Notes: a model not told the origin generated them from the letters alone. 64,000 nt of DNA from an uncultured Eubacteriales bacterium (GCA_942492885.1 OW818651.1:962959-1026958); one strand, 5' to 3'. Counted from the stretch's first letter, positions 9,189 to 58,928 are shown. Numbers and translations: made by a program.

Positions 9189-10247
9189 ATGCAAACCAAA
9201 GATTATTCCATCACGCTGGATATGATGCGCACGCTCCCGTTTCGCCCGTTTGAGGTCGTGGAGGGCGACACGGGAAACATTCTGCACGTCACCCTGCTCA
9301 ACAACGGGGACGCTATGGATCTTTCCGGCTGCGCGATTCATGTCGCGTTCGCGTCCAGCAGCGGCTTTGCCATGCAGGACGAGACCAGCGGCATTGAGAA
9401 AACCGCAGGAACGGGCACGTTTGACATCGCGCTGCTGCCAACCGCCTATGGTGCGGGCAACGTCAGCGCGGATGTACAGGTCTACAGCGGAGAGAACGGC
9501 GAGACGCTGGTGACCAGCACGCGCTTTGACTTTCGCTGCCGCAAATCGCTCATCAGCGGCGAGATCATTCGCGCAAACACAGCCTATCCGCCGCTGATCG
9601 AGGCGGCACGGGTCGCAAACGAAGCGGCTGCTGCCGCGCTTGCTTCGGCGGAACGCATCGACACCGACATCGGGGAACTCAACGTGCAGGCGGACTGGAA
9701 CGAGACGGATACAGCGCAGGATGCGTATATCCGCAACAAACCCGCCATTCCGTCCACCCCCGCAGCCGTCGGCGCGGCTCCCGCAAGCCACGCTGCGCAG
9801 CATCAGCAGGGAGGTAGCGACCCCGTGACGCCGATCCCCCATGCGGCAAGGCACGCAACCGGCGGTGCAGACGCGCTCTCCCCTGCGGACATCGGCGCGG
9901 CAAGCCTCGTGAACGGTATCATCGACGCCGAGCAGAGCGCGGTTGCGATCCACTCTCAAACCGCAAGCTACACGGCGACCGCCGCGGACAACGGAAAAGA
10001 CATTTGGATCACCAGCGCATCCGCAGCGACGCTGACGATTCCGGCGCAGGCCAACGCTGTCTTTCCTGAGAAGACGTTCTTTTTTGTCACCCGCGCGGGA
10101 AGCGGCGCGCTCACACTCGCGGTTGAAGCGGGCGTCACGCTCCATTCTGCTGGCAACAGACTGCAACTTGCGGAGCAGTTTGCCACGGTGCTCCTGAGAA
10201 AGCTTGCGGATAACGTCTGGCTCGCTACAGGGAGCTTATCCGCATGA
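9189..10247 (+). CDS. phage tail-fibre / baseplate-upper-protein-like protein
   Basis: ORF 9189..10247 with the strong RBS aaaggaggtaagaa. The N-terminus (YSITLDMMRTLPFRPFEVVEGDTGNILHVTLLNNGDAMDLSG) resembles BppU-type N domains. NVQADWNETDTAQDAYIRNKPA is a motif I recognise from many phage tail fibres. Confidence 0.75.
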   Translation: MQTKDYSITLDMMRTLPFRPFEVVEGDTGNILHVTLLNNGDAMDLSGCAIHVAFASSSGFAMQDETSGIEKTAGTGTFDIALLPTAYGAGNVSADVQVYSGENGETLVTSTRFDFRCRKSLISGEIIRANTAYPPLIEAARVANEAAAAALASAERIDTDIGELNVQADWNETDTAQDAYIRNKPAIPSTPAAVGAAPASHAAQHQQGGSDPVTPIPHAARHATGGADALSPADIGAASLVNGIIDAEQSAVAIHSQTASYTATAADNGKDIWITSASAATLTIPAQANAVFPEKTFFFVTRAGSGALTLAVEAGVTLHSAGNRLQLAEQFATVLLRKLADNVWLATGSLSA

Positions 10248-10996
10248 GGCAGCTGATGATGGGCTGCGTTGCGGCGAGCGCGGGTAGCTTTGAGCTCACA
10301 GACTACACCTACACCGGCTCATGCCTTTGGGTGCAGGATACCGTGTCGAATTGGCGACTGAAATTTTTCACGAGCGGTATCTTTACGCCAAAAAAGAGCG
10401 TCTCAATCGACGCTTTCCTACTCGGTGGTGGCGGAGGAGGCGGCGCTTACGCAAACAGCTCAAGACTAGGTGGCGGTGGAGGCGGCGGATATACCGGAAC
10501 AGTCAGAAGTATCACACTAACCCCGGGAATCGCATACTCGATTACGATTGGAGCCGGCGGCGGGCCAGGCGGCGGAGGCGGCACGACTTCGGCATTCGAA
10601 AACAGCAGAACGGGCGGCTTGGGCGGTGGGTATGCATCCATCACGGCACCGGGCGGTCAGGGCGGCTCAGGCGGTGGCCAGGGCAGCCAAGGGGCTGAAT
10701 CGGGCGGCTCGGATGGCTCGAACGGTGGCGGCACTTTCGGCGGAGCAGGCCAGGGTTCGACCACGCGTGAATTCGGCGAAGCTGGCGGCGATCTCTATGC
10801 TGCCGGCGGCGGCGGTGGTTCTTGGGATTTCATGGGCGGTCTGGGCGGTGCAGGCGGCGGTGGACGCGGCGACGGCAATGCCGGCGCTCCAACGGCGGGT
10901 GCGGCGAATACCGGCAGCGGTGGCGGCGGTCGCGCAGATATTCAGGCAGCATCCGGCGGCTCCGGCATATTGATCATCCGCAACAAACGAGGATAA
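10244..10996 (+). CDS. glycine-rich phage-associated protein
   Basis: ORF 10244..10996; its start overlaps the upstream stop (ATGA). Contains runs such as LLGGGGGGGAY and LGGGGGGGYTG, with a non-Gly N-terminal domain and a C-terminal SGGSGILIIRNKRG. Confidence 0.65.
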   Translation: MRQLMMGCVAASAGSFELTDYTYTGSCLWVQDTVSNWRLKFFTSGIFTPKKSVSIDAFLLGGGGGGGAYANSSRLGGGGGGGYTGTVRSITLTPGIAYSITIGAGGGPGGGGGTTSAFENSRTGGLGGGYASITAPGGQGGSGGGQGSQGAESGGSDGSNGGGTFGGAGQGSTTREFGEAGGDLYAAGGGGGSWDFMGGLGGAGGGGRGDGNAGAPTAGAANTGSGGGGRADIQAASGGSGILIIRNKRG

Positions 10997-11314: not shown

Positions 11315-11353
11315 AAACACAAAAGAAGAGGACGGCGGATATCCGCCGTCCTC
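11315..11353 (-). terminator. intrinsic terminator of the permease gene (may also stop the plus-strand cassette)
   Basis: Perfect 13-bp stem gaggacggcggat/atccgccgtcctc. On the minus strand it is followed by ttcttttgtgttt. Confidence 0.6.
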
Positions 11354-11399: not shown

Positions 11400-12719
11400 T
11401 TATGCTTCCTCGTTGAAGACGTAGTCCTTGCCCGGCAGGATGGCATTGACGATAACGCCGACGATTGCCGCTACAGCGAGACCGCCCAGGGTCAGAGTAC
11501 CGATCTTGAGCGGATATGCGTTGAAGCCGAGGCCGCAGACGAGGATGAGCGCCATCACGATGATGTTGCGCATGTTCTTGAAGTCCACTTTGTTTTCAAC
11601 AATCGTGCGAATACCGGTTGCGGAGATCATGCCGTAGAGAACGATTGAGACGCCGCCGATGATTGAGAACGGGATTGTATTAATGAACGCATCAAGAACG
11701 CTGATAAACGAGAGCAGGATCGCGAAGACTGCCGCAATGAACATGACTTTCGGGTCATACACCTTCGTCAGCGCGACGACACCGGTGTTCTCCGAATAGG
11801 TTGTGTTCGCGGGGCCGCCAAACGCGCCGGCCAGAGAGGTTCCGATACCGTCGCCAAGCAGCGTACGGGTCAGGCCCGGGTCAGCGATGAAGTTCTTGCC
11901 GCAGGTTGCGCCGATGGCACAGATATCGCCAATGTGCTCGACCATAGCAGCAATCGCGACCACCATGAAGGTGATGATGGCGGGCCAGGCAATCGCCGGA
12001 TCAAACGCCTGCAGACCAAATACGAAGCGCAGCGGCGAGTAATCCATAAACGGCGGAACGTTGAAGATAGCTACATCTTTGAATGCGGAGAAGTCCACCC
12101 ACTGCAACCCAAACAGTGCGTTGCCGGAGAGCAGGGATACGATCACGCCAATGATATAAGCACCAAAGATACCGCAGAGAATCGGGATAATCTTGAGCAT
12201 CCCCTTGCCGAAAAGATTGGCGCAAATGATGATCACAAGCGCAATCAGTGCCAGTATCCAGTTGTTTTGAGCCCACATAATACCGACGGGCGCTAGGATC
12301 AGACCGATGAGAACGATGATCGGTCCCGTGACAACCGGCGGGAAGAGTCTCATGACCTTCTTCGGCCCAAATATGCCAAAGAGGATCGCGAGCACGACAT
12401 AGCCCAAGCCAGCAAACACGACGCCGAGTGTGGCGTACGGCAGCAGCGCCATGTCGCCATTGGCAACAGACGCGAATGCGCCGAGGAATGCAAACGATGA
12501 ACCGAGGAATACCGGAACTTTTTTCTTGGTGATGAAGAAGAACCAGAGCGTTGCAATACCGGCGCAGAAGAGCGTGACAGAGACGGACAAACCGGTGAGC
12601 AAGGGAACAAGAACCGTAGCTCCAAACATTGCAAATACGTGCTGGAGGCCCAGGACGAGCATTTTGCCCGTGCCAAGCTCTTTAAAGCCATCGTAAATGC
12701 CTTCGACTTTCTTTTCCAT
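11400..12719 (-). CDS. NCS2 family nucleobase permease (uracil/xanthine permease-like)
   Basis: ORF 11400..12980; start set at ATG 12719 (MEKKVEGIYDG), preceded by aggaggtaattc. Contains the LGLQHVFAMFGATVLVP and FLGSSFAF blocks of the UraA/PyrP family. Confidence 0.9.
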   Translation of the reverse strand: MEKKVEGIYDGFKELGTGKMLVLGLQHVFAMFGATVLVPLLTGLSVSVTLFCAGIATLWFFFITKKKVPVFLGSSFAFLGAFASVANGDMALLPYATLGVVFAGLGYVVLAILFGIFGPKKVMRLFPPVVTGPIIVLIGLILAPVGIMWAQNNWILALIALVIIICANLFGKGMLKIIPILCGIFGAYIIGVIVSLLSGNALFGLQWVDFSAFKDVAIFNVPPFMDYSPLRFVFGLQAFDPAIAWPAIITFMVVAIAAMVEHIGDICAIGATCGKNFIADPGLTRTLLGDGIGTSLAGAFGGPANTTYSENTGVVALTKVYDPKVMFIAAVFAILLSFISVLDAFINTIPFSIIGGVSIVLYGMISATGIRTIVENKVDFKNMRNIIVMALILVCGLGFNAYPLKIGTLTLGGLAVAAIVGVIVNAILPGKDYVFNEEA

Positions 12720-13139
12720 TGAATTACCTCCTAATGTTTTTGGATAATTAGGTCTCCATTTCTCTTTATTATCAAGAGCTTCTGCTCTGGATAACCATAA
12801 CGGGGAAACGAGAATTCGCTGGGTTGTATCGATGGTAGTATGTGACTGAAAGAGACTTGATAATACCATTCTTGCCGAAATAAACAGATTAAGCAAGATT
12901 TTTTTGTGCGGATATCGCTCAAACCGAGTGTTTACTGAAGTCCACCGCATTTTAACAGTATTAACGAGTATATCCGCCATTTAACAAACACAGTATAGTC
13001 TAACTGTTGCGCAAAACGAGTATCACAACATGTTCATCGCTCGCTTCTGGTTATCTTACCGTAAACGGATGCTGTGCACAAGTTATTTTTGATTGCAGTT
13101 TACGATTCGTGATAGCTCAAAACGCAGATTTGCGCGCGT

Positions 13140-13685
13140 TTAGACGATTGCGATTCGCACCGCGCAGGAGCGGGAAACGATTGCAGCAAGCGTAACGTTG
13201 CGAATGTGGGACTGCTTATGCAACATGTAATGAAACTGATCCAGATCTTTTTGCGAGATGAGCTGAGAAGGGTCCTGTATGATAGATAGATAAGCATTGA
13301 GGGAATCGAATACTTGATTTGTGATTGCGTTGTATTTGTCTTTGGCGAAGCTCCCGTTGCTGGCCTGCGCCTGAATGTCGTCCCGAAGAAAATAGAGTTC
13401 CCTGACGCTAGCGAGCACCGTTTCGTCGATCAGTTTTTGCAGCACGTTTCGAATTGCTTCGGGTTGTTCCTGCAAAGGAAGGATGCGAACGAGGCTACCG
13501 TCAAGCGATTCGCCAAGCAAGCGTTCTTTTGTGCCGTGGTTTTCCAGTAAACGATCCGCAAGTTTGCAGTATTCCTCCGCAAACCGGTCACAGGAAGGAT
13601 ACATCTTTTTCTTCTTGAGGTAGGATACGCCATAGAAAGCGGCAGCTACGACTGCGACGACCAGCATTGCGAAGTATTTCTCCAT
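13140..13685 (-). CDS. hypothetical membrane-anchored protein
   Basis: ORF 13140..13685 with one N-terminal TM helix (FAMLVVAVVAAAFYGVSYL). AT-richer than its neighbours. No family recognised. Confidence 0.5.
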   Translation of the reverse strand: MEKYFAMLVVAVVAAAFYGVSYLKKKKMYPSCDRFAEEYCKLADRLLENHGTKERLLGESLDGSLVRILPLQEQPEAIRNVLQKLIDETVLASVRELYFLRDDIQAQASNGSFAKDKYNAITNQVFDSLNAYLSIIQDPSQLISQKDLDQFHYMLHKQSHIRNVTLAAIVSRSCAVRIAIV

Positions 13686-13763: not shown

Positions 13764-14564
13764 TTATACCTCATCGAAGCCGTCAAATGCAACGACGCGG
13801 GAAATGCAGCTTTCGCCGTCTTTCAGCTTCCACGGGAAGATGCCGATGACGCAGCGCTTGTTGGAGAGTTTCTCAATCTCGCCGCCGAGGCATTCCGCAT
13901 GGATCGCCTCATAGGGCTGACAGAAAAGCTCAATATGCATCGCCTGATAGTGATCCGGCCACGGATAGACTTCTTCGAGCGTCTTGCCGTACTTCTTTTG
14001 GAAGATGGCGTCGCACTTCTTGGCTTCCATGGGTTCCCACTCGCGAATCTTCGTGTTCATCGGGTGATCCGCGCTGCCGCAGTCCACGCCGATCCAGCTG
14101 AGCTTCTTATCGCGCACCCACTGAATGAAGTCCAGCGACGGGCCGGGATGGCGCAGCATATAGCGGCGCTCATCGGCCTTCGGGTTATCCCAGCCGTAGA
14201 TGTGGTAGCCGGTGTTGATGATCAGCACGTCGCCTTCCTTGACGGTCACGCGCTTTTCGATGTCCTGCGGTGTATAGATGCCGAAATCCTCCGCCTGATC
14301 GCTCAGGTCGACCACCACGCCGGGACGGCAGAGACGGGTCAGCTCGAGGGACGCGATGTCGCGCCCGGCGGTGTCAAAATGCAGCGGGCCGTCGAGGTGG
14401 GTGCCGACGTGGTTGCTGTGCGTCAGCAGCTGTCCGTTTGCGCCGTTGGGTGTGAGGCGCTTGAAGAATTTCATCGTCAGCGGCTCATACGTCGGCCAGG
14501 CGGGCGTGTTGATGCCAATCGGAATCGTGAGGTCATACATCTTGATGTCAGACCATTTACTCAT
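13764..14564 (-). CDS. cyclase-family metal-dependent hydrolase (kynurenine formamidase-like)
   Basis: ORF 13764..14564. HVGTHLDGPLHF matches the HxGTHxDxPxH motif of the putative cyclase family. Confidence 0.88.
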   Translation of the reverse strand: MSKWSDIKMYDLTIPIGINTPAWPTYEPLTMKFFKRLTPNGANGQLLTHSNHVGTHLDGPLHFDTAGRDIASLELTRLCRPGVVVDLSDQAEDFGIYTPQDIEKRVTVKEGDVLIINTGYHIYGWDNPKADERRYMLRHPGPSLDFIQWVRDKKLSWIGVDCGSADHPMNTKIREWEPMEAKKCDAIFQKKYGKTLEEVYPWPDHYQAMHIELFCQPYEAIHAECLGGEIEKLSNKRCVIGIFPWKLKDGESCISRVVAFDGFDEV

Positions 14565-14635
14565 GTGTTTTGCCTCCTAAAAATTATTGATGAAGTCGTT
14601 ATAGTATGCTCCCTTGCGGGTGCGAGTTTCTGCTG

Positions 14636-16060
14636 TTATGCCCAGGCCTCGGCGCAAGCCGCAAGCGCCTGCTTGAAGCAATCGTCCGGCGGATACACGA
14701 TGCCCGCGCCGACCTGCCCCACGCCGGGGTTTTTATGCGCAATGCCCGTGTTAATCACGGGGCGGATGCCGGTTTCGATGACTTTGCGCAGGTCGATACC
14801 CGTCGGGCTTCCGCGGAAATCCAGCGCAGGAATTTTATACGACCTGCCCTCGCCCACCGTGATTTCATACATCCGCGTGGAATAGTTGATCGAGTCGCTG
14901 ACCTGTCCGCCAACGAACTGCACGATTGCGGGCGCCGCCGCCATGCAGAATCCGCCGATGCCGGCAGTCTCCGTGATGCAGCTGTCCCCCATGTCGCGCG
15001 CGGCGTCCGCCTCGCTATAGCCGGGGAAATACAAGCCCTTGACCATCTCCGCTTCCGCCGCAAACCAGCGGTTTTTGCCGAGCCCCGCGATGCGGATGCC
15101 GAAGTCGGTGCCGTTGCGGCTCATGGTCGCGACCACCGTGCAATACGGAATATCGAAGATCGGGTCGAGCGTGCATTTCATCGCGGGCATGGAGATATTC
15201 AGAAACGTGTGGTTGTTGCCGTTGATGAAGTTAAATACCGCGACCTTCTCGGCAAGCGATCTGTCGCAATTCATGATCGCGGGCACCAGCTCTCTAAGCA
15301 GCAGCGAAGTTCCCGCTTCGTTGCGGTTGTGTCCCTCGTCGCCCATCTGCAGGAGCTTGCTGACCAACACTTTGACGTCGATTTCGCCCTTTATCGCCAT
15401 CGCTTCCTTGAGCACGGGATAGATCTCCCGTTCCATCCAGCGAAGGCGCGTGAGCACTTCGTTATCATATGCACCAAAGCGCAATACTTTTCCCAAGCCT
15501 TCGTTGATTGTGCAATACGCGCGGTTGCCGAAGGTTTTGTTTTCGAGAATCCAGACCGGCATGCTTGCGGTCACGACGCCCGCCATGGGGCCAACCGCGT
15601 CGTGCATGTGGCACGGGTCAAACGTGATCTCGCCGCTTGCGGCGAGGGCTTCTGCTTCTTTTGCGTCGCGTGCTAAGCCTTCGTAGATCAGCCCGCCCAT
15701 GACCGCGCCGCGCTGCGGGCCACTCATCCGCGCCCACGTGACCGGAGGTCCCGCGTGCAGAATCGTCTTCTTCGTCATGCCGGGGATGACTTCCCCCGCG
15801 ATGCCGAGGCCCATGATCGTCGGCTGCGCGGCGAGGATACGCTCCAGCGCCTCCTTGTTTGCCGCGTCGATCTTTGCCGCAAGCTGCGGTTGTTTGAGTG
15901 TTCTGAGGTTTGCGGATGCGACCTTATCGCCGCCCGCGACGGGCTTCCAGTCCACGTGCACAGCGTCTACCTTCTGGCTCGCGAGATCGTCATAAAACGA
16001 CTCGATGCCGAAGTTCACCACGTGCAGCTTCTGTTCAAATAATTCATTCAGTTTCGACAT
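14636..16060 (-). CDS. DUF1116 protein (YlbE/AllG-like)
   Basis: ORF 14636..16153; start set at ATG 16060 (MSKLNELFEQK), 1 nt after the FdrA stop. Long blocks match E. coli YlbE as I recall it: LHAGPP, CHMHDAVGPMAGV, GNRAYCTINEGLGKVLRFGAYDNEVLTRLRWM, NTGIAHK. Confidence 0.88.
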   Translation of the reverse strand: MSKLNELFEQKLHVVNFGIESFYDDLASQKVDAVHVDWKPVAGGDKVASANLRTLKQPQLAAKIDAANKEALERILAAQPTIMGLGIAGEVIPGMTKKTILHAGPPVTWARMSGPQRGAVMGGLIYEGLARDAKEAEALAASGEITFDPCHMHDAVGPMAGVVTASMPVWILENKTFGNRAYCTINEGLGKVLRFGAYDNEVLTRLRWMEREIYPVLKEAMAIKGEIDVKVLVSKLLQMGDEGHNRNEAGTSLLLRELVPAIMNCDRSLAEKVAVFNFINGNNHTFLNISMPAMKCTLDPIFDIPYCTVVATMSRNGTDFGIRIAGLGKNRWFAAEAEMVKGLYFPGYSEADAARDMGDSCITETAGIGGFCMAAAPAIVQFVGGQVSDSINYSTRMYEITVGEGRSYKIPALDFRGSPTGIDLRKVIETGIRPVINTGIAHKNPGVGQVGAGIVYPPDDCFKQALAACAEAWA

Positions 16061-16061
16061 G

Positions 16062-17633
16062 TTATCCCTCCTGACGCAGGTTCGCGAGGATACGGGAGAC
16101 AAAGCGTGTCGCCTGCGCGTTGCTGGGCAGCACGACCGCGCCCGCGTCCGCAAGCTGCTGCTGCGTGCGGTTCAGGCTCTGGGGGTCTCCCTCCGTGCCG
16201 CAGACCGCGCATACGCAGCAAAGATTTCTGCCCGCGCGCGCCGCTTCGTCCTTTGCAGTCTTGATCGCTTCGGCGAGATCCTCCGCCGGGTTCGGGTGCG
16301 AACCGAATCCGATCACGCAGTCCGCCATGATCACCGCGCAGGATGGATCTTTTGCGTCCGTGATCACGCGCTCGGCACGCAAACTCGGGTCGATCATCGG
16401 GTGCGGACGACCGACGGTGAACGCGTCGTCCCCGAAATCGAGGAACGTGTGCTCGCGGCTCTCTCCGCCCTTCGGGTCTTCCAGCGCATCCTCCGCGTTG
16501 AGCGGAATGTTGCTGTAGATGTGCCCGAGCTCGGAGATCATGAGCTTCATGGCTTCGTCGCAGAGCGTGCCGCCGGTGTAGAACCCGCGCACGTATTTCT
16601 GCCATTTGGCAAACTTTGTTGCGATCTCTTTTGCCATCGCTTCCGCTTTGGCTTCGCCCATATCAAATCCGGCGTAGTCCTTCGGTGTTTCTCCGCGGCT
16701 CAATGCAACGGCTTTGTGCGCCGCATCCTCGAGGGAGACGGCGGCGGTCAGGCCGAACGATTCAATCTCTTTGCGGTCTCCACCGATGAAGCAGACGACC
16801 ACGGGCTTGCCCGTCTTTGCCGCAAGGGCGAGCATCTCACTCGCGATCTCTTTGGCCGGGGGCTTGCTGATGAGCGTAATGACTTTCGTCTTGGGGTCAT
16901 TCTTGAGTGCGTCGAGGCCGAGCTTCATCATCAGCCCGCCGATGTCCTTCTTGAGGTCGCGTCCGCCGGTGCCGATCACCTGGCTCACGCCGGAACCCAG
17001 CTGGTCGATGATGCTCGAAACTTCCTGCGTGCCCGTGCCGCTCGCGGCGACGATGCCGATATCCCCGCTCTTGACCACGTTTGCAAACGCGAGCGGCACA
17101 TGGTTGATGATCGCGGTGCCGCAGTCCGGTCCCATCATCAGCAGCTCATGTTCATAAGCGTAGGTCTTGAGCGCTTTTTCCTCTTCTATGGTCACGTTGT
17201 CCGAAAACAGCATGACGTTGATTCCATTGTCGAGGCAGCTCTGAGCGACGTCCGCCGCGTGCCTGCCCGGAATGGAGATGATTGCCATATTCAGCGCGGG
17301 ATCGATCTTAAGCGCGCCGTCGAGCGTCGGCGGGGCGTAGAGTGCGCCTTTGCTCTCGGCTTTCTTGTTGAGCAGTTCTTCCGTCTTCTTGAGCACGGCG
17401 GCAAAGGCCGCTTCCCCGTCGCACGAAACCGCTACAAAAAAATCGTTGGCCAAAACCGCGCTGGCGAGCTCCGGCGTTGCAACGCCGATGTTCTGTGCGA
17501 TCTCCTTATTCAGATCCGACCCCATGCCGACGAGCGCTTCGCTCACGCCTTCGAGCTTTTTGAGCTCTTTGGAGATAAGCATCAGGGTGACGGAATCATA
17601 GTATGCGTTTTTCTTGATTTCAAGTTTGATCAT
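16062..17633 (-). CDS. FdrA family acyl-CoA synthetase-like protein (AllF-like)
   Basis: ORF 16062..17633. The N-terminus MIKLEIKKNAYYDSVTLMLISKELK parallels E. coli FdrA, and succinyl-CoA-synthetase-alpha-like CoA-binding/ligase blocks follow. Confidence 0.9.
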   Translation of the reverse strand: MIKLEIKKNAYYDSVTLMLISKELKKLEGVSEALVGMGSDLNKEIAQNIGVATPELASAVLANDFFVAVSCDGEAAFAAVLKKTEELLNKKAESKGALYAPPTLDGALKIDPALNMAIISIPGRHAADVAQSCLDNGINVMLFSDNVTIEEEKALKTYAYEHELLMMGPDCGTAIINHVPLAFANVVKSGDIGIVAASGTGTQEVSSIIDQLGSGVSQVIGTGGRDLKKDIGGLMMKLGLDALKNDPKTKVITLISKPPAKEIASEMLALAAKTGKPVVVCFIGGDRKEIESFGLTAAVSLEDAAHKAVALSRGETPKDYAGFDMGEAKAEAMAKEIATKFAKWQKYVRGFYTGGTLCDEAMKLMISELGHIYSNIPLNAEDALEDPKGGESREHTFLDFGDDAFTVGRPHPMIDPSLRAERVITDAKDPSCAVIMADCVIGFGSHPNPAEDLAEAIKTAKDEAARAGRNLCCVCAVCGTEGDPQSLNRTQQQLADAGAVVLPSNAQATRFVSRILANLRQEG

Positions 17634-18520
17634 GATTTGATTCCTCCAGTGTTCTGTCGCAGCGCGAGCACAATGCCTGTGAGCATGTCCGCGCCGGATG
17701 TGGAGCCGATGGTGAGCGCGCGATCGATGGCGCGCTTTGCCGCCGCGATGTCCATAAACGTAAAGATTGACCGAAACAGGTCACAGATCGCGGTGTTGGC
17801 GAGCGCTTCCCCGCTGTGGAGCAAAAACGTCGCGCTGATTTGGTTGGTCTTTTCCGCAGCAGCCTGCGCCATGGTTTTGATGTCCGCTTTCGCGTCAAAT
17901 AGATGCTGTGCGCGAAGGCGCAGATGAAGTGTCGTAACATATCCGCTGAGCAGGTCGTCTGACGACGGAGTCAGCCCCATGCCGCAACCCGCGCAATCCG
18001 CCGCCGCCTGTGCGGCTTCTTCCCACGCGCCCAGTGAAACCGCGGAGCTGAGCCGCTCAAGTCTTGGCGCGAGAAATCGTGTATAGATGTTCCCGCTATC
18101 GCCTGTTGCGAGCGGGGCAAGGCCGATCTCCGCATCCGCGCCTTTGAGCGCTTCTAAGATTATCGTTACCAGCTTCCCTTCCGCCTCTTTGCCATATCGC
18201 AATTCGATCGCGTCAACGCTGAGGTCAGAGAGTGGCGCGCTTGCCAGATTGATCTCGAACTGCGCGTCGGGGATGATGAGCATCCCTTCTCCAAGATACG
18301 CCGCCATGCCCGTGCGGACACCCGTTAGGGCAAACGGGGCGTTCGTCCGCACAAGCACAGCATATGGCGTTAGGGCCTTTTCTTCGGCAATCAGTCCGAT
18401 CAGCCCGCGAAACCCAAACTCCAGATTCACCGCGTGATCAAACACGGAATGCACCGTGCCGGAACGCGAACGGCTCAGCGAGAGATCCAGGAGACGACGG
18501 CAAACGGCTGTTGCGTGCAT
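17630..18520 (-). CDS. DUF2877 protein (YlbF/AllH-like)
   Basis: ORF 17630..18520; its stop overlaps the FdrA start (ATGA). Size and position match the third member of the FdrA/YlbE/YlbF trio. The call rests on context plus weak recall of the family. Confidence 0.7.
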   Translation of the reverse strand: MHATAVCRRLLDLSLSRSRSGTVHSVFDHAVNLEFGFRGLIGLIAEEKALTPYAVLVRTNAPFALTGVRTGMAAYLGEGMLIIPDAQFEINLASAPLSDLSVDAIELRYGKEAEGKLVTIILEALKGADAEIGLAPLATGDSGNIYTRFLAPRLERLSSAVSLGAWEEAAQAAADCAGCGMGLTPSSDDLLSGYVTTLHLRLRAQHLFDAKADIKTMAQAAAEKTNQISATFLLHSGEALANTAICDLFRSIFTFMDIAAAKRAIDRALTIGSTSGADMLTGIVLALRQNTGGIKS

Positions 18521-18526
18521 GGGTGG

Positions 18527-18892
18527 TTACGGCCTGACGAACACGAAGCCGTAATCCTGGCAGTCGATGCTTTCCTTATAGAGGATGCGGCGCGTGCGCA
18601 CGACGTTGACGGTGGCGAGCAGCTCCATGCCGCTCTCGATGCCGTCGTCAAAGCCGATCTGTCCCGTCACGCGGACGCCGTTTTCAAACTCGACCACGCC
18701 GAAATGGAGCCACGGCTGCATGTATCCTTCGGGCAGGTTATACACCCGCGTCCATGTCAGGAGTTTGCACTTGCCGCCGAGCGGTTCCTCGGTGAATTCG
18801 CGCCCGTCGCAGTCCGGATTCTGGCAGACGACGTAGCGGGGATGGTGCAGCTTGCCGCATTTTGTGCATTTGTAGGCGTACATCTGTTCCAT
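18527..18892 (-). CDS. DUF35 Zn-ribbon/OB-fold protein (thiolase partner)
   Basis: ORF 18527..18892. CTKCGK ... CQNPDC forms a rubredoxin-like knuckle, followed by an OB-fold segment (LLTWTRVY ... GVVEFENGVRVTGQI). Confidence 0.85.
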   Translation of the reverse strand: MEQMYAYKCTKCGKLHHPRYVVCQNPDCDGREFTEEPLGGKCKLLTWTRVYNLPEGYMQPWLHFGVVEFENGVRVTGQIGFDDGIESGMELLATVNVVRTRRILYKESIDCQDYGFVFVRP

Positions 18893-18907
18893 TTCTTCTT
18901 CCCTCCC

Positions 18908-20104
18908 CTACTTCGTGGTCAAAATCGTCGCCACGACATTGTTGCCAAACCCGCCGAAATTCACGGCAAGCCCGGTCTTTGCGCCCTCGACCTGACGGCC
19001 TTCCGCTTCTCCGCGGAGCTGGCGCACCAGTTCGATGATCTGGGAAACGCCCGTCGCACCCAGCGGATGGCCTTTCGCCTTCAGCCCGCCGGAGGTGTTG
19101 ATCGGCAGCTTGCCGCCGACCTTCGTGTCCCCGTTGCGCGCCGCGATGTGGCCCTGTCCGCGCGGGAAGAGTCCCGCTTCTTCGCTCTCCTCGATTTCGA
19201 GGATCTGGAACGCATCGTGCAGCTCGGCAACGTCGATATCCGAGGGCTGCATACCCGCCATCTTGTAGGCCTTCTGTGCGCTGAGGCGCACGGCCAACAG
19301 ATCGCTCGGGTTGTCGCGGTTGGCGACCACGTGCGTGTCCGTCGCGGAGGCGATGCCCGCCACACGGACAAACGGTTTACTCGCAAAGCCCAGCTCGTCC
19401 TGCTTGTCTTTTGCTACCAGCAGTACGGCAGCCGCGCCATCCGAAACGGGGCACATATCAAACTGCCGCAGCGGATCGGCGACGATGGGGTTTGTCGCGT
19501 TGATGTACAGGGGATTCGTGATACGCTCCAGCACCACGGGGCGCTGGATGTGCGCCACGGGGTTGTGGCAGGCGTTGTCATGGTTTTTGACCGAGACGAT
19601 GGAGAGGTCTTTGCTCTCCACGCCGAAGCGATCCATGCAAAGCCGCGTAAACATGCCCGCAAACGACGGCAATGTCAGGCCGTATTTATACTCCGCTGTG
19701 GGATGCAGCATGGTCGCGACAAAGTCGGTGCCTTCCCAGCCGGTGACCTCGCGCATGGCTTCGCCGCCGATGACCAGCACGCAATCGCACATGCCGCTGG
19801 CGATCGCCATCACGCCGAGCTTCACGGCGGAGGCTCCCGAGGCGGGGCCGTTTTCGATGGTCTCCGCCATCGCGGGGCGAATGTTGAGCGCGTCTACCAC
19901 CGCGCTTGCGGCTCCGCTGACGCGGTTGACCATGCCCGCGCCCATAGAGGCGACAAACACCTGCTCAATGACGTTTCTGCGTCCCGTCTTGGCGCCCGCG
20001 TCGTCCATGCAAAGCAGCGCCGCCTCACAGAGCAAATCGAGAAACGAGCCGTTCGTCTTTCCAAACTTGGTGTGGCCCACGCCAACGATTCCTACCTGTC
20101 TCAT
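18908..20104 (-). CDS. SCP2/archaeal-type thiolase-fold protein lacking both catalytic cysteines
   Basis: ORF 18908..20128; start set at ATG 20104 (MRQVGIVGVGHTKFGK) after ggaagaaaggaagaagg. Has INTSGGLKAKGHPLGATG. It reads ENGPASG where thiolases have NxCASG, and ELHDAF where SCP2-thiolases have HDCF. Confidence 0.85.
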   Translation of the reverse strand: MRQVGIVGVGHTKFGKTNGSFLDLLCEAALLCMDDAGAKTGRRNVIEQVFVASMGAGMVNRVSGAASAVVDALNIRPAMAETIENGPASGASAVKLGVMAIASGMCDCVLVIGGEAMREVTGWEGTDFVATMLHPTAEYKYGLTLPSFAGMFTRLCMDRFGVESKDLSIVSVKNHDNACHNPVAHIQRPVVLERITNPLYINATNPIVADPLRQFDMCPVSDGAAAVLLVAKDKQDELGFASKPFVRVAGIASATDTHVVANRDNPSDLLAVRLSAQKAYKMAGMQPSDIDVAELHDAFQILEIEESEEAGLFPRGQGHIAARNGDTKVGGKLPINTSGGLKAKGHPLGATGVSQIIELVRQLRGEAEGRQVEGAKTGLAVNFGGFGNNVVATILTTK

Positions 20105-20175
20105 TGCCTTCTTCCTTTCTTCCTTCACGCAGCGCGGGCGCAGTCCATCGCACCCGTCGCTAACCTGCCGAAGCG

Positions 20176-20847
20176 TCAGACGCTGATCTTGGCGGGCATG
20201 TGCACCACTTTGTTGGCCGCGATGACGTCTTCAAACGCGGGGCGAATGCCGACGTTCTTGTTGGCTTTGTGCTTTTCCCAAAGTGCGCGCGTGAGAACAA
20301 AGGTCGGCACACCGCCCAGCTCGTGCGGGCTCTGCGGACGGGATTCGAGCTCATACTCGATCATCCAGCGTTTGAAGCCGTTGGGGCTTTCGGCGACGAT
20401 CCATACTTCGTCCTGATTCATATAGTCAAAGTGATATTCCATCTTGGCGGCAAAAAGCTGCGCGCCGACGCGAGCGCCGCGCTTGAGGGTCATGGTGTGA
20501 TAGCTCATGCCGACTTTTTCGTTGACCATGCGGCCGTTGACGATGCCGGCGATCTCGCCGTCGATCGCGCCGATGAGCAGGTATTCATCCTGCACACGAT
20601 AGCGCAGCATGCCTAAGAGTTCCGCGACGATGCGCGCAGAGACGATGTCGTAGAAATCCTTCTGGTGGTCTAACAAAACCTTGATGCCTTCGATGACCAT
20701 TTCGGTCTCTTCGCGCGTCGCGGTGCGAACGAGCATATCTTCGCCGGTGGTCAGCGGAATCACCTTCGCCTCGTAGGGTTTAAGCCCAATTGTCGGCGGA
20801 CGCAGCGTTGCTTCCATTTCGTCAACGAGAATATCATACTTACCCAT
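20176..20847 (-). CDS. hypothetical protein, possible GNAT-fold acyltransferase
   Basis: ORF 20176..20865; start set at ATG 20847 (MGKYDILV) after ggaggcaaaacac. LKRGARVGAQLFAAKMEY resembles the GNAT acyl-CoA-binding R/Q-x-x-G-x-G/A segment. Weak call. Confidence 0.55.
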   Translation of the reverse strand: MGKYDILVDEMEATLRPPTIGLKPYEAKVIPLTTGEDMLVRTATREETEMVIEGIKVLLDHQKDFYDIVSARIVAELLGMLRYRVQDEYLLIGAIDGEIAGIVNGRMVNEKVGMSYHTMTLKRGARVGAQLFAAKMEYHFDYMNQDEVWIVAESPNGFKRWMIEYELESRPQSPHELGGVPTFVLTRALWEKHKANKNVGIRPAFEDVIAANKVVHMPAKISV

Positions 20848-21399
20848 GTGTTTTGCCTCCTTCAATTTGTAAAAGAAATATGATAGAAAGGATTGGTGGG
20901 ATTTACAAGTTCATTTTAGCGTCATTATGAAGCCTTGTCCAGTATTTCTTGCAAATATATTGTTTTCGGCGAGCGCGGACGTTTTCCCCTAAGCAGCCTC
21001 GTCAAATTACTGGAACTACGCACCAGTTCTTGCAGGAAAGGCTGTATAGTTGTCGATTACAAGCCATTTTCTAATTTGATAAGAAACAGAGCTACCTGCA
21101 TTTGTGACGCCATTTTCTGATAATTTAGCTACTTTTCGTGTATTTTTCAAAATATCTCCAACGTATTGTTGATTATTTGTGCAGTATTTGTTTACATATC
21201 CTGCATTTTGTGTTTTACAGGGATTTCTCCGGCGCAAATTGTTTTTTTCACATGCGCGTAGTATACTGTATGAAAATAATGGGGTGGAATTTTGTTTTTT
21301 TCCACTTTGCGCGGTTTCCCGCGCGCACGTTATATTTAAAAGCTTATGATTACGGAATCCCGATATCGGGTTCTGGTTGAAGAAAGAGGATCGTAACAC

Positions 21400-22374
21400 A
21401 TGGACAACAAGATTCGCAGAATCGGCATCCTCACCAGCGGCGGCGACGCGCCGGGCATGAACGCCGCCATCCGCGCGGTGGTTCGTACCTGCGTGCTGCA
21501 CGACGTCATCCCCATCGGTATTCACCGCGGCTATAACGGACTGATTCATTCGGACGTGGTCGAGCTCGACGCGCGCGCCGTCAACGGCATCACCTCGCGC
21601 GGCGGCACGATTCTCTACACCGCCCGCAGCGAAGAATTCCGCACGGATGAAGGCGTACAGCGCGCGGCTGAAAACTGCAAATACCTCGGCATCGACGGCG
21701 TGATCGCCATCGGCGGAGACGGCACCTTCCGCGGTGCGCGTGAGCTCTCCAAATACGGCATCAACACAATCGGCATCCCCGGCACGATCGACAACGACAT
21801 CGCCTGCTCGCATTATTCCATCGGCTTTGACACCGCGGCAAACACCGCAATCGACGCCATCGATAAGCTCGCGGACACCATGCAGAGCCACCAGCGCACC
21901 AGCGTGGTGGAGATCATGGGCAGAAACGCTGGACATCTCGCCGTCTATGTCGGAATCTCTGTGGGAGCAACCGCAATCATCCTGCCGGAGCGCCCGTTTG
22001 ACTTTGAGCGTGACGTTGTGGAGAACATCCGCGAGGGACAATATCGCGGCAAGCACCATCACCTGATCATCGTAGCCGAGGGCACGAACAGCACCAACGA
22101 GATCGCCCAGCGCTGCCGCGACGAGCTGGGGCTGGACACCCGCGTCACCATCATTGGCCACGTGCAGCGCGGCGGCAGCCCGTCCGCGCGCGACCGCGTG
22201 ATGGCAACGCGCATGGGTCACCGCGCGGTGGAGGAAATCCTCGCGGGCGGCACCAACCTCATCGTGTGCTACCGCAACAGCCAGATCACGACCGTACCCA
22301 TCGACGAGGCACTCACCATGACGAAGGACCTCGACGAGTACATGTATCGCGTCGCAACCGAGATCACGATCTGA
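21400..22374 (+). CDS. pfkA: ATP-dependent 6-phosphofructokinase
   Basis: ORF 21400..22374 with RIGILTSGGDAPGMNAAIRAVVR, GGDGTF, PGTIDND and MGRNAGHLA blocks. Confidence 0.95.
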   Translation: MDNKIRRIGILTSGGDAPGMNAAIRAVVRTCVLHDVIPIGIHRGYNGLIHSDVVELDARAVNGITSRGGTILYTARSEEFRTDEGVQRAAENCKYLGIDGVIAIGGDGTFRGARELSKYGINTIGIPGTIDNDIACSHYSIGFDTAANTAIDAIDKLADTMQSHQRTSVVEIMGRNAGHLAVYVGISVGATAIILPERPFDFERDVVENIREGQYRGKHHHLIIVAEGTNSTNEIAQRCRDELGLDTRVTIIGHVQRGGSPSARDRVMATRMGHRAVEEILAGGTNLIVCYRNSQITTVPIDEALTMTKDLDEYMYRVATEITI

Positions 22375-22454
22375 CGATTGTACTAAAAACAAGCCCGGGT
22401 GTTTTGCCCGGGTTTTCTTGCGCAAAATATTAGAATAACTTGAGGAGAAACAAT

Positions 22455-23192
22455 ATGGTATTCGATACATATGGCGATTCCAAGAACCCCACCCTGGTTT
22501 TGCTGCACGGCGCGGCGGCTCTTGATACGTTTGCGCACCAATACGAGATGCTCACGCAGCGCTTTCACGTGCTGGTGCCGCATCTGCCAGGCGCGGGCGA
22601 GGCGGCGGCTCAAGCCTATGACCCGCAGACAACGTGCAACGCGCTCGCCGCTTGGATCGGTTCGCTCGACGTGGGCAAAGTGCTGGTGATGGGACATTCC
22701 GTCGGCGCGCAGCTCGCGGTCAAGCTCGTCAGCGAGCACGAATCTCTCTTCTCCCGCGCGGTGTTCCTCAGCGCGTGGCTCATCTCGACTCAAGCCACTA
22801 TGCGCCTCTTTGCCGGCATGGCAAAGATGTCCTACGGCGCGATCAAGAACGCATCTCTGCTGCGCATGCAGGCGAAATACTGGGGCATGACGGCGGAACA
22901 GACGGAGAAGCTCGTCGCCTACAGCCCGCGCATCACAAAGGAAACCTACGTCGGGTTCTACGCAAACCGGATCGATCTAAAAGACCTGCCCGGCTATGCC
23001 TCCGTGACGATCCCAATGCTCGCGATGTGCGCGCGCGGCGAAACGGCGGAGATGAAGCAGTCGCTCAACGCCTTGGGCGAACAAAACACAAACTGCCTCA
23101 CGGTACTTTTCCCGCAAGGCAGCCATGATTTTGTTCTTCGCAACTACGACTTGTTAAATCCGATGTTGATGGACTTTTTGACGGCAGAGTAA
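22455..23192 (+). CDS. alpha/beta-fold hydrolase
   Basis: ORF 22440..23192; start set at ATG 22455 after gaggag. Has LVLLHGAAA and the nucleophile elbow MGHSVGA. Confidence 0.85.
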   Translation: MVFDTYGDSKNPTLVLLHGAAALDTFAHQYEMLTQRFHVLVPHLPGAGEAAAQAYDPQTTCNALAAWIGSLDVGKVLVMGHSVGAQLAVKLVSEHESLFSRAVFLSAWLISTQATMRLFAGMAKMSYGAIKNASLLRMQAKYWGMTAEQTEKLVAYSPRITKETYVGFYANRIDLKDLPGYASVTIPMLAMCARGETAEMKQSLNALGEQNTNCLTVLFPQGSHDFVLRNYDLLNPMLMDFLTAE

Positions 23193-45853: not shown

Positions 45854-46774
45854 CTAACAGCTCGTCATGTTTCTCCCGTTTTTCTTTGACAAGTACAGCG
45901 CCTGATCAGCAGCATTTAGTAACTCGGTGCTTGAATCGTTCTTTGCCGGCATTCTCGTTGCAACGCCAACGCTGATCGTCACAAACTTTTCGACGGTTGA
46001 GAATGCGTGCGGAATATTCAATGACGCGACCACCAGGCGTAGCTTTTCAGCAATAATAAATGCGCTATCCTCATTTGTATTCGGTAAAACGCACACGAAT
46101 TCCTCGCCGCCGTATCTGGCGAGAAGATCTGTCTTGCGGACAATCACCTTGCATAAGGCGTGCGCAATTTGAATCAAACAGTTGTCCCCGCCCTGGTGTC
46201 CGTAATTGTCGTTATATTGCTTAAATAAATCGATATCCATCATAATGAGAGAAACAGGTATGGATGCGCGAACCGACAGGTTCCAGGTGGATTCGAGATA
46301 TTCGTTGAACTTGCGGCGGTTAGAAATGCCGGTTAAGCCATCCAAATAGGACATGTTCTCCAGATAATCCCGGTATTGCTTGAGTTCGATGTGCATACCG
46401 ACTCTGGCTTTTACGATGACGGAATTGTATGGCTTCTTGATATAATCAACCGCACCCAGATTGAATCCAAAGATTTCCTCGTCTTCATTCACTTTTCCGG
46501 TCACGAATATGATTGGTATGCCTTTTGTCAGTGAATCAGCCTTCAATCGTCTGCACACCTCGTAACCGTCGATGCCGGGCATGATGACATCCAAAAGGAT
46601 CAAGTCCGGCGGGTTCTCGGAAAAAGCGATCTCAAGCGCCTTTTCTCCGTTGATCGCTGCACGGATTTTGTATTCGGGCTTCAAGAGCTCGGCCAGAATA
46701 CTGATGTTTTCTTTCGCATCGTCAACGATCAATACCGTCGGTTGCTCGAACAGATCATTCATTGTCTGCACCAT
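45854..46774 (-). CDS. response regulator-diguanylate cyclase (REC-GGDEF)
   Basis: ORF 45854..46774. REC domain (VLIVDD ... DLILLDVIMPGIDG ... K), RKTD I-site and ARYGGEEF. An alternative start at ATG 46762 is possible. Confidence 0.9.
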   Translation of the reverse strand: MVQTMNDLFEQPTVLIVDDAKENISILAELLKPEYKIRAAINGEKALEIAFSENPPDLILLDVIMPGIDGYEVCRRLKADSLTKGIPIIFVTGKVNEDEEIFGFNLGAVDYIKKPYNSVIVKARVGMHIELKQYRDYLENMSYLDGLTGISNRRKFNEYLESTWNLSVRASIPVSLIMMDIDLFKQYNDNYGHQGGDNCLIQIAHALCKVIVRKTDLLARYGGEEFVCVLPNTNEDSAFIIAEKLRLVVASLNIPHAFSTVEKFVTISVGVATRMPAKNDSSTELLNAADQALYLSKKNGRNMTSC

Positions 46775-50195: not shown

Positions 50196-50651
50196 ATTCC
50201 ACCTCGTTTATTTTCCATAATGTACCACCGCTTCATCTTGGGTTTGAGTTCGCTAATTTCAGAAGCAATCTGTAATAAAACATGCTTCCGTTCATTTTTT
50301 CACTATTCTATTCATACGCGTCTTGAAGAAAATATTTGTCAAATCAATAGCACTCCAGAAGTTAAAAGTAACGATCACAAATCGAATTATAACAGACAAA
50401 GCGAGATAAACGCTATCCCACCCATTAGACTCGAATCAATCCGAAACCATTCGAATTCCCGTCTCATGAAGCTCGCTTCCGACGCTACATGTGATTGTCT
50501 TTAGCCCCTATCCCGGCTTGCAAAAAACGGTTGGATATCATTGGCATATGGTAATCAAAGACTCATCCATGTTTTCTTCTGACAATCTATTCGCAATCAT
50601 ATTGTATTTTGCTTCTTCCTGCAACTCCAGCCGAATAATGCATCGCTCGCG

Positions 50652-58917: not shown

Positions 58918-58928
58918 ATGTGGATGTT

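Follow-up and report, generated by a model that had tools for sequence, protein, structure and literature searches.

Organisation of the gene cluster

Seven genes packed together on the minus strand of a 64-kilobase (kb) stretch of DNA from an uncultured Eubacteriales bacterium (GCA_942492885.1, OW818651.1:962959-1026958; 64,000 nucleotides (nt), referred to here as the window) encode a trio of proteins related to AllF, AllG and AllH, a thiolase-fold protein with a DUF35 partner, a cyclase-family hydrolase and a GNAT-fold protein that we call g1. They occupy positions 13764-20847 and are followed on the same strand by a conserved orphan gene, o181, and by a permease of the NCS2 family. We consider that the seven genes, o181 and the permease most likely work as a single unit in the breakdown of a pyrimidine base, in a host that is a strictly anaerobic member of the Clostridia. 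The enzyme families involved are known, whilst their combination and the energy-conserving chemistry predicted from it are undescribed in the literature that we searched.

In order of transcription, the cluster begins with g1 (20176-20847; 223 amino acids (aa), with an ATG at 20847 and GAAGGAGG just upstream). There follow the thiolase-fold gene (18908-20104; 398 aa), the DUF35 gene (18527-18892; 121 aa, of zinc ribbon plus OB fold type), AllH/DUF2877 (17630-18520; 296 aa), AllF/FdrA (16062-17633; 523 aa), AllG/DUF1116 (14636-16060; 474 aa, with its ATG at 16060) and the cyclase-family hydrolase of PF04199 (13764-14564; 266 aa), a metal-dependent amidohydrolase. The gaps between successive genes are 71, 15, 6, -4 (an overlap), 1 and 71 nt. 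An earlier reading of this DNA, made by a model from the sequence alone (the sequence-only reading), had proposed a seven-gene operon here; its coordinates agree with ours, and spacings of -4 to 71 nt bear it out. The thiolase-fold protein starts at ATG 20104, as its orthologues do, and a GTG at 20128 was discarded as its start.

Downstream, o181 (13140-13685, minus strand, 181 aa) lies between the cyclase gene and a 420-nt permease leader (12720-13139, minus), after which comes the NCS2 nucleobase:cation symporter (11400-12719, minus, 439 aa), whose ATG at 12719 is preceded by the Shine-Dalgarno sequence AGGAGG. The sequence-only reading had placed this permease, with its own leader, immediately behind the seven genes; the leader and the shared strand stand, but o181 intervenes. 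Directly past the permease stop codon is a hairpin resembling an intrinsic terminator (11328-11353, minus), whose stem has 11 pairs, nine being G-C, with a T-run behind it. No minus-strand terminator as strong was found between 20847 and 11400, and this hairpin is likely to be the end of the transcription unit. At the other end, a consensus scan, which is the basis for these assignments, found promoter-like sites only upstream of g1, at 20880-20941 on the minus strand, as an overlapping pair: TGGACA-17-TAAAAT (20941-20913) and TTGTAA-17-TATCAT (20908-20880). Both fall inside a 552-nt divergent region towards a phosphofructokinase gene on the plus strand (21400-22374). An open reading frame of 484 aa on the minus strand upstream (21016-22470) was rejected as spurious, being antisense to the phosphofructokinase gene. 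A search of Rfam with the cluster, the permease leader and the upstream region, at both gathering and permissive thresholds, gave no match.

The window itself contains no carbamate kinase, molybdenum hydroxylase or allantoin gene, in keeping with what the sequence-only reading had reported for the first and last of these, and a search of it for homologues of allB, allC, allD, allE, allW, glxK and allK found none.

The AllF, AllG and AllH subunits

In the anaerobic allantoin pathway of Escherichia coli, AllFGH (FdrA/YlbE/YlbF) interconverts oxalurate plus phosphate with carbamoyl phosphate plus oxamate, independently of coenzyme A (CoA) (PMC11326118). This CoA-independent carbamoyl transfer is the only biochemistry available for the three-subunit family (PMC11326118). 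The AllF of the window scores 479.7 bits against the NCBIfam FdrA model (cut-off 433), carries CoA_binding and Ligase_CoA domains and is related to the alpha subunit of succinyl-CoA synthetase, and AllG and AllH match Pfam PF06545 (312 bits) and PF11392 (75.7 bits), both above gathering. By BLASTP the window proteins are 38% (AllF), 45% (AllG, against YlbE) and 30% (AllH, against YlbF, over the C-terminal 115 aa) identical to those of E. coli. They are closer to their orthologues in clusters of the Alkaliphilus/Tissierellia type, at 52-54% for AllF and 65-68% for AllG. AllH is the fastest-evolving of the three, its orthologues being 30-78% identical where the other genes are 65-99% identical.

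The likeness to the E. coli system lies in the three homologous subunits encoded side by side, in the carbamate kinase linked to them in some relatives and in the predicted reaction type, which would be the phosphorolysis of an acylurea to carbamoyl phosphate and an amide. The differences are equally clear. The gene order is H-F-G in the window and F-G-H-K in E. coli, a module of ~50 aa is carried by AllG rather than AllF, there are no allantoin genes nearby and the constant partners are instead a molybdenum hydroxylase, the cyclase-family hydrolase and a nucleobase permease. As substrate we predict ureidomalonate, compared with oxalurate in E. coli. By sequence, then, the trio belongs to the AllFGH family, set outside an allantoin-gene context and probably acting on a different substrate.

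The ~50-aa module deserves some comment. The first ~55 aa of AllG (15880-16060) match positions 503-551 of the FdrA model and residues 509-555 of E. coli AllF, so that the same module is found at the C-terminus of AllF in E. coli, at the N-terminus of AllG in the window and as a free-standing gene of 55-56 aa between allF and allG in Alkaliphilus, Synergistota and Tissierellia (L085:8477-8647, L087:8262-8429 and L089:8431-8601, respectively). When aligned, these forms are 32-50% identical to one another. That the module moves between AllF and AllG is indirect evidence that both act as one complex. A frameshift or fusion between the two genes had been suspected, given that an open reading frame starting at TTG (14636-16153) carries a piece resembling the FdrA C-terminus, and was ruled out because AllF stops at TAA 16062-16064, AllG starts at ATG 16060 and the piece is the mobile module.

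AllH is present in all complete loci except two. In these, from Pelethousia spp. (L059 and L061), the DUF35 gene is followed directly by AllF and no AllH is detectable within the 13-kb loci; it may be dispensable in Pelethousia or be encoded elsewhere in the genome.

The GNAT-fold, thiolase-fold and DUF35 proteins

The sequence of g1 gave no match to Pfam, NCBIfam or PDB profiles. Its AlphaFold2 model (predicted local distance difference test (pLDDT) score 91; predicted template modelling (pTM) score 0.88) was compared with the PDB using Foldseek, and the top 50 matches were all GNATs, with E-values down to 1e-6. The model shares its fold with PA3270, RimJ, SpeG and PseH (Foldseek probability 1.0, template modelling (TM) scores of 0.40-0.57), and at the site where the pyrophosphate of CoA binds in GNATs there is a glycine-rich loop, KRGARVGA, resembling the canonical Q/R-x-x-G-x-G/A motif without fitting it. 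Identity to the solved GNATs is 9-18% and, unlike them, g1 is always encoded together with the thiolase-fold/DUF35 pair. The description 'GNAT-like', used in the sequence-only reading, is thus supported by modelling at the level of the fold only. Nearly all of the 2385 homologues of g1 are unnamed or 'hypothetical', and the family forms a compact, isolated group, represented by only 196 of 1.84 billion clusters at 50% identity. We propose that g1 might transfer an acyl group between an amide nitrogen and CoA.

The thiolase-fold protein matches Thiolase_C_1 (148.6 bits) and Thiolase_N (80 bits), and its nearest structures are the archaeal-type thiolases 7yvy (255 bits) and 6esq, followed by BbsB, Ltp2 and PhlC. 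At the position of the nucleophile, however, it has proline in the motif ENGPASG where 7yvy has cysteine in EAACASG, the two being aligned with high posterior probability. This is a property of the family, given that [IV]ENGPASG was found in 79 of 79 orthologues and then in 86 of 87. Other active-site motifs are kept, with ELHDAF in 79/79 and KAKGHPLGATG in 75/79. Lacking the nucleophilic cysteine, the protein cannot form an acyl-enzyme and is therefore not a canonical thiolase. The sequence-only reading had seen a C-C-cleaving or C-C-forming module of thiolase fold and DUF35, of which the thiolase fold stands, though not as a canonical thiolase. The protein may instead act on a CoA thioester through its enolate, for example by decarboxylating it or by cleaving it as a lyase.

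The DUF35 protein scores below the gathering thresholds of Pfam zf-ChsH2 (20.5 bits against 23.2) and OB_ChsH2_C (21.4 bits against 27.1), and reaches 33 bits with the BbsA model, whose cut-off is 250; its four-cysteine ribbon is nonetheless visible (CTKCG...CQNPDC). The g1, thiolase-fold and DUF35 genes were contiguous and collinear in 83 of 83 loci, with DUF35 directly after the thiolase-fold gene, and DUF35 is likely to be a small subunit or scaffold of the thiolase-fold protein.

As in the known thiolase/DUF35 pairs (6esq and 6et9; BbsAB, 7pxp; Ltp2-ChsH2, 6ok1; PhlABC, 5m3k), a protein of the SCP2/archaeal-type fold is encoded beside a putative zinc-ribbon/OB protein. Loss of the thiolase nucleophile has a precedent in Ltp2, a cysteine-less lyase that works with a DUF35 protein, and ketosynthases that lose the cysteine (those of KS-Q/CLF type) become decarboxylases. 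The protein studied here is nevertheless considerably nearer in sequence to the archaeal thiolases, with a score of 255 bits, than to Ltp2, with 108 bits, and differs from the archaeal thiolases in the proline at the cysteine position and its invariant ENGPASG motif. The third partner also sets this system apart, being a GNAT-fold protein rather than a 3-hydroxy-3-methylglutaryl-CoA (HMG-CoA) synthase or KAS-III-like protein, as does the context of nucleobase catabolism. In the archaeal complex of thiolase, HMG-CoA synthase and DUF35, an uphill step is coupled to a downhill one.

The cyclase-family hydrolase

The last of the seven genes matches Pfam PF04199 at 119.4 bits (gathering 23.1), and the metal motif HxGTHxDxPxH, which the sequence-only reading had picked out, is present as HVGTHLDGPLH. 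With the arylformamidase equivalog model TIGR03035 it scores 48.3 bits, well below the cut-off of 223. Its distant relatives in the PDB are kynurenine formamidase and isatin hydrolase, and it has the PF04199 domain and metal motif in common with both KynB and isatin hydrolase. It is ~55 aa longer than KynB and, unlike KynB, belongs to a subfamily tied to a molybdenum hydroxylase and to AllHFG. Members of this subfamily are 63-97% identical across several phyla, and 63-70% identical in lineages beyond those that carry g1. We propose that the protein would perform a ring-opening step; isatin hydrolase provides a precedent for the opening of a lactam ring by the PF04199 family.

Cyclase homologues that are 66-68% identical also occur without AllH, AllF or AllG, on an Omnitrophota contig (L088, 10001-11737) and a Thermotogota contig (L086). 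In the latter the gene adjoins a molybdenum hydroxylase, an adenine-deaminase-like gene and a tandem GNAT. An ornithine carbamoyltransferase gene beside the 68%-identical Omnitrophota cyclase was considered as a classical substitute for AllHFG and given no weight, because its neighbours are housekeeping genes and it reaches the equivalog level for ornithine carbamoyltransferase.

Conservation and linked genes

We surveyed related loci in two ways, anchoring on g1 in species genomes and on the cyclase in metagenomes and keeping the best 80 loci from each with flanks of up to 10 kb. Relatives of g1 were found in 393 of 185,579 species-representative genomes, and the 80 closest loci are all from Clostridia. 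Carriers include Christensenellaceae-like and Oscillospiraceae metagenome-assembled genomes together with Flavonifractor, Lawsonibacter, Pelethousia, Anaerocolumna, Herbinix, Acetivibrio and Clostridium. Among the best 80 species genomes, all seven genes were present in every locus that was long enough, apart from the two Pelethousia loci without AllH. The joining of the AllFGH trio to a thiolase-fold/DUF35 pair, a cyclase and a GNAT-like protein, which the sequence-only reading had singled out, is hence a recurrent feature, and the transport genes that accompany it are NCS2 and cytosine permeases. The arrangement is not fixed. In L069 and L070 the block AllH-AllF-AllG-cyclase is divergent from g1-thiolase-DUF35, and in L075, L077 and L078 it lies ahead of it, yet the two halves are still together. 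The halves are thus co-conserved even where they have been rearranged, and the cluster is therefore not a chance juxtaposition.

Past the cyclase, nearly all loci have either a three-subunit molybdenum hydroxylase (flavin adenine dinucleotide (FAD), 2Fe-2S and molybdenum subunits) or an NCS2 permease, with o181 sometimes preceding either, and many loci have a regulator of the PucR family upstream. When both surveys were pooled and restricted to loci with the cyclase and AllG and a length of at least 12 kb, 101 in all, the hydroxylase was present in 71, the permease in 49 and the PucR regulator in 46. Less frequent were a cytosine-deaminase-like gene (12 of the 101), carbamate kinase (7) and a cytosine permease (4). 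The molybdenum subunit is XdhA-like, scoring 557 bits against a cut-off of 780. A Se_S_carrier-domain gene and a class-V aminotransferase of the cysteine/selenocysteine lyase type lie just upstream of PucR in Lawsonibacter/Flavonifractor (L081/L082, 6753-8125), which may hint that the linked hydroxylase is selenium-dependent in these loci.

With regard to transport, the clusters contain 48 distinct permeases, of which 46 match the uracil-permease model at E <= 1e-60. Six of the 48 come up to about the cut-off of that model, and no other family reaches its equivalog level; the permease from Clostridium scores 596 bits against 477. The permease of the window scores 308 bits for the ncs2 superfamily (cut-off 292), 249 for RutG and 192 for pbuX, and is nearest to the uracil permease and RutG models. 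Within or next to the cluster, L089, L069, L060, L052, L047 and several metagenome loci have genes for cytosine permease equivalogs and for cytosine deaminases or similar proteins. Taken together, the hydroxylase, the uracil-type NCS2 permeases, PucR and the cytosine permease and deaminase genes of relatives lend weight to the suggestion of the sequence-only reading that the substrate is an amide or heterocycle, possibly derived from a nucleobase.

That reading had also allowed for carbamate kinase and allantoin genes lying just outside the cluster. Across the 168 related loci we found no homologue of AllC, AllD, AllE, AllW, the allantoin transporter or GlxK, and the sole AllB-like match was a 25%-identical amidohydrolase (L150). 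Carbamate kinase lies inside the cluster in L080, L089, L090, L098, L099, L121, L136, L158 and L168, with a partial copy beside it in L059.

An exchangeable tail

Some lineages have the same core with a different set of accompanying genes. In Alkaliphilus metalliredigens (L085) the locus comprises a hydroxylase, permease, PucR, AllH, AllF, the 56-aa gene, AllG, the cyclase, a CN-hydrolase and a family-III CoA-transferase, and contains no g1, thiolase-fold gene or DUF35. A Tissierellia contig (L089) has this core followed by a CoA-transferase, carbamate kinase, an amidase-signature enzyme and a cytosine permease and deaminase, and a Synergistota contig (L087) has the core plus a CoA-transferase. 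The two forms do not mix. Of the 80 cyclase-anchored metagenome loci, 37 have the CoA-transferase, 8 have the g1 triad and none has both; amidases never occur with g1, and the CoA-transferase is found in 0 of 83 g1-anchored loci. In total, the CoA-transferase was seen in 37 metagenome and 3 other loci and the triad in 8 and 83, never co-occurring. The CoA-transferase is often accompanied by a CN-hydrolase or an amidase-signature enzyme, and most resembles the types for oxalate, succinate-glutarate and mesaconate, whose substrates are dicarboxylates.

The triad of GNAT-fold, thiolase-fold and DUF35 genes is an exchangeable tail. The conserved core consists of hydroxylase, cyclase, AllH/F/G, permease and regulator, and the two mutually exclusive tails should do equivalent jobs. 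Mutual exclusion is what would be expected if both turn a small amide-acid or dicarboxylate into a CoA ester.

A predicted route for pyrimidine degradation

We are fairly confident that the cluster serves nucleobase catabolism and that within it the trio produces carbamoyl phosphate from a ureide formed by ring opening. The finer claim, that the cluster degrades uracil or cytosine by an undescribed route and gains ATP through carbamoyl phosphate, we put at about an even chance. We infer the substrate and each chemical step from what was observed, namely gene content, co-conservation, folds, the loss of the cysteine, the alternative tail and the linked genes. If the three types of reaction attributed to the core (hydroxylation of an N-heterocycle, hydrolysis of a ring amide and phosphorolysis of an acylurea) are applied to uracil, they give barbiturate, then ureidomalonate, and then carbamoyl phosphate plus malonamate.

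In this scheme uracil would be imported by the NCS2 permease or, in some relatives, formed from cytosine by the linked deaminase. The three-subunit molybdenum hydroxylase, encoded beside the cluster in most relatives but absent from this window, would hydroxylate C6 of uracil to give barbiturate. The cyclase-family amidohydrolase would then open the ring to ureidomalonate, an acylurea one CH2 longer than oxalurate, and AllH/AllF/AllG would use phosphate to split this into carbamoyl phosphate and malonamate, much as E. coli AllFGH acts on oxalurate. Carbamate kinase, which some relatives encode within the cluster and this genome presumably encodes at another site, would convert carbamoyl phosphate to ATP; its occurrence inside about ten related loci supports carbamoyl phosphate as the product. 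For the sequence uracil, barbiturate, ureidomalonate, malonamate, the case for and the case against seem to us evenly matched.

What would follow is more speculative. In the tail found in the window, g1 could act as a GNAT in reverse, converting malonamate and CoA to malonyl-CoA and NH3, after which the thiolase-fold/DUF35 pair could decarboxylate malonyl-CoA to acetyl-CoA and so pull the uphill step from amide to thioester. In the other lineages an amidase would convert malonamate to malonate for activation by the CoA-transferase. We hold the mechanism given for the tail of the window, a reverse GNAT reaction plus decarboxylation argued by analogy, to be possible but doubtful. The same caution applies to the broadest form of the proposal. 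This holds, quite tentatively, that the AllH/F/G family are general acylurea phosphorylases, acting here as a ureidomalonate (malonamate) carbamoyltransferase, that a DUF35-scaffolded complex of GNAT and cysteine-less thiolase might turn malonamate and CoA into acetyl-CoA, CO2 and NH3, and that up to two ATP might be gained per uracil.

The first two predicted intermediates are those of the aerobic oxidative pathway, in which uracil is converted via barbiturate and ureidomalonate to urea and malonate by uracil/thymine dehydrogenase, barbiturase and ureidomalonase, as described in Rhodococcus (PMC3758960). Hydroxylation followed by hydrolytic ring opening is common to both. The routes would differ in that cleavage here is predicted to use phosphate, yielding carbamoyl phosphate, ATP and malonamate, rather than water, yielding urea and malonate; in addition, the hosts are strict anaerobes and the cyclase-family hydrolase would replace barbiturase. 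General Pfam scans of the window proteins and of L081-L083 and L085-L089, made without a query using a barbiturase sequence, revealed no member of the AtzD/TrzD barbiturase family and no recognisable ureidomalonase.

A number of points weigh against this interpretation. The frequencies of the linked genes are conditional on the g1 and cyclase anchors and on the closest 80 loci of each survey, and of the 168 related loci only about 10 have carbamate kinase within the cluster or next to it. The molybdenum hydroxylase is absent from the 64-kb window, and from within 10 kb in the closest relatives, so hydroxylation rests on a gene that has yet to be located, or else this lineage imports a compound that is already oxidised. 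The permease of the window, moreover, scores 269.5 bits against the uracil permease model NF007995 (UraA/PyrP), short of the cut-off of 477. We know of no cyclase-family enzyme that hydrolyses barbiturate and of no AllFGH homologue that has been assayed on ureidomalonate. The conversion of an amide to a thioester is thermodynamically uphill, and its suggested coupling to decarboxylation is drawn from analogy with the KS-Q/CLF ketosynthases, Ltp2 and the archaeal complex rather than from evidence. Finally, PucR and an XdhA-like molybdenum subunit would be compatible with a purine-type substrate as well, and the Synergistota variant has a transporter that resembles xanthine permeases.

Alternative explanations

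These last points lead to the alternative that the logic of the cluster is as proposed but its substrate is a purine-type or other N-heterocycle, such as xanthine, urate or a hydroxylated imidazole, which the cyclase would open to a ureide for AllH/F/G to convert to carbamoyl phosphate. We think this unlikely, whilst taking it seriously. PucR-family regulators are linked to the cluster, the best models for the molybdenum subunit are xanthine dehydrogenases of XdhA type, the Synergistota permease is closest to xanthine permease and, in the Thermotogota locus, cyclase and hydroxylase occur with an adenine-deaminase-like gene. The XdhA score nevertheless stays below its cut-off (557 against 780 bits), the uracil-permease model is matched by 46 of 48 permeases and is the sole model reached at equivalog level, and the cluster repeatedly has genes for a cytosine permease and deaminase as neighbours. 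A tail with an amidase and a dicarboxylate-type CoA-transferase also fits a C3 amide-acid better than an aminoimidazole product, and the enzymes that would lead from urate to oxalurate are all absent. Yet another substrate-level alternative would be that the trio is an ordinary oxamate carbamoyltransferase for the anaerobic breakdown of allantoin or oxalurate, with the other allantoin genes elsewhere in the genome. AllF does exceed the FdrA subfamily cut-off, AllG and AllH have their Pfam matches, and the CoA-transferase of the alternative tail is nearest to a CoA:oxalate transferase model, which would suit a conversion of oxamate to oxalate. This explanation is nonetheless very improbable, given that AllC, AllD, AllE, the allantoin transporter and GlxK are missing from the window and from all 168 loci, where the only AllB-like protein is the 25%-identical one in L150. 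AllF and AllG are, besides, 38% and 45% identical to the E. coli proteins and 52-68% identical to orthologues of other phyla that are linked to the hydroxylase and cyclase, the order is H-F-G and not F-G-H-K, and the constant partners, a molybdenum hydroxylase and a ring amidohydrolase, have no use in the allantoin route.

The remaining two alternatives concern how the parts belong together. The trio might be akin to an ADP-forming acyl-CoA synthetase, as the old name 'FdrA acyl-CoA synthetase' implies, and either supply the CoA thioester that the thiolase-fold/DUF35 pair handles or gain energy from it, with the cyclase merely deacylating or deformylating an amide. AllF has the CoA_binding and Ligase_CoA domains of the succinyl-CoA synthetase type, and the cluster always has CoA-linked partners, be these GNAT and thiolase fold or CoA-transferase. 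The known biochemistry of AllFGH is, however, a carbamoyl transfer independent of CoA (PMC11326118), there is no ATP-grasp nucleotide-binding subunit and carbamate kinase recurs inside the cluster. Furthermore, when the tail is exchanged the trio remains linked to the cyclase and hydroxylase and does not follow the CoA-linked genes, and we therefore regard such a function as improbable. Alternatively, g1-thiolase-DUF35 and AllH-AllF-AllG-cyclase might be unrelated operons that abut by chance, a prospect that the sequence-only reading had itself raised for the junction at 18520-18527. The blocks are indeed separable: their order or orientation changes in some genomes, and the clusters of Alkaliphilus, Tissierellia and Synergistota lack the first one. 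Where it is missing, though, it is replaced by a CoA-transferase with or without an amidase and the two are never found together, as would be expected of a single pathway whose modules can be swapped; in every locus that is long enough, the second block lies within a few kb of g1, and the junction in the window is 6 nt. There is next to no likelihood of a chance abutment.

Possible significance for pyrimidine catabolism

A uracil- or cytosine-degrading function would have consequences for how anaerobes are thought to use pyrimidines. To our knowledge, pyrimidine breakdown in strict anaerobes is known mainly as the reductive route, and genes for the oxidative route have been described only for a few aerobes. 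If our interpretation is correct, several hundred species of Clostridia, together with Tissierellia, Synergistota and relatives, ferment uracil or cytosine in an unrecognised way, and a further pyrimidine route would stand beside the reductive, oxidative, Rut and URC pathways. The carriers include Flavonifractor and Lawsonibacter of the human gut, and gut, bioreactor and sediment samples supplied many of the metagenome loci. The recently discovered AllFGH family would gain a second physiological role, with energy conserved via carbamoyl phosphate, and both an orphan family with the GNAT fold and a thiolase-fold/DUF35 pair that lacks the cysteine would acquire a function. The names currently given to these proteins ('acyl-CoA synthetase FdrA', 'kynurenine formamidase', 'acetyl-CoA acetyltransferase' and 'hypothetical protein') are probably misleading. 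Simple substrates exist, as do carriers in culture, among them Lawsonibacter hominis NSJ-51, Flavonifractor hominis CLA-AP-H34, Anaerocolumna aminovalerica DSM 1283, Clostridium lamae, Clostridium sp. HCS.1 and, with the alternative tail, Alkaliphilus metalliredigens QYMF. In the full-text literature that we searched, which did not extend to subscription-only papers, we found no description of the cluster or of an AllFGH-type enzyme in pyrimidine catabolism, and a 2025 paper on a 'reductive uric acid pathway' concerns a different set of genes (PMC12507026).

The permease leader and o181

The leader of the permease contains an element of ~95 nt at the start codon (~12720-12815) that is near-invariant in an alignment of eight species, the remainder of the leader being unalignable. 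The invariant part contains two hairpins, one formed by TTATCCAGAGC and GCTCTTGATAA and the other by CCTAAT with an ATTAGG that overlaps the Shine-Dalgarno sequence. The element has a minimum free energy of -26.3 kcal/mol (z = -2.25), and an exact 29-nt core is present in eight loci and once in the window. A conserved promoter-like TTGCTT-(~18)-AAGAAT lies ~150 nt upstream in the leader. On sequence grounds, 12720-12815 is a candidate for a riboswitch-like or attenuator leader of the permease.

The gene o181 follows the cyclase in 35 of the 101 long loci and is a frequent eighth gene of the cluster. All of its 67 homologues are unnamed or 'hypothetical', and the protein has a hydrophobic N-terminal helix. 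Its AlphaFold2 model is all-helical (pLDDT 90), and no match better than E = 0.3 was obtained when it was compared with the PDB using Foldseek. Flavonifractor has a divergent counterpart of 192 aa.

Other features of the window

The rest of the window is made up of genes for central metabolism, signalling proteins and polysaccharides. Past the operon terminator, at 9189-10996 on the plus strand, are two genes with BppU N-terminal and glycine-rich domains, resembling phage baseplate or tail proteins, and a family related to these neighbours is kept downstream of the permease in close relatives. A region on the minus strand at 45854-58296 has a G+C content of 0.42-0.48, compared with ~0.58 around the cluster, and holds a run of large signalling genes that encode two hybrid histidine kinases, a 1305-aa response-regulator/PAS/GGDEF/HD-GYP protein, a response-regulator-GGDEF protein and a CheR methyltransferase. 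Further along, at 58847-59195 and 62984-63111, are two tRNA genes with a 6S RNA gene between them (minus strand) and, on the plus strand, a leader of ribosomal protein L20.

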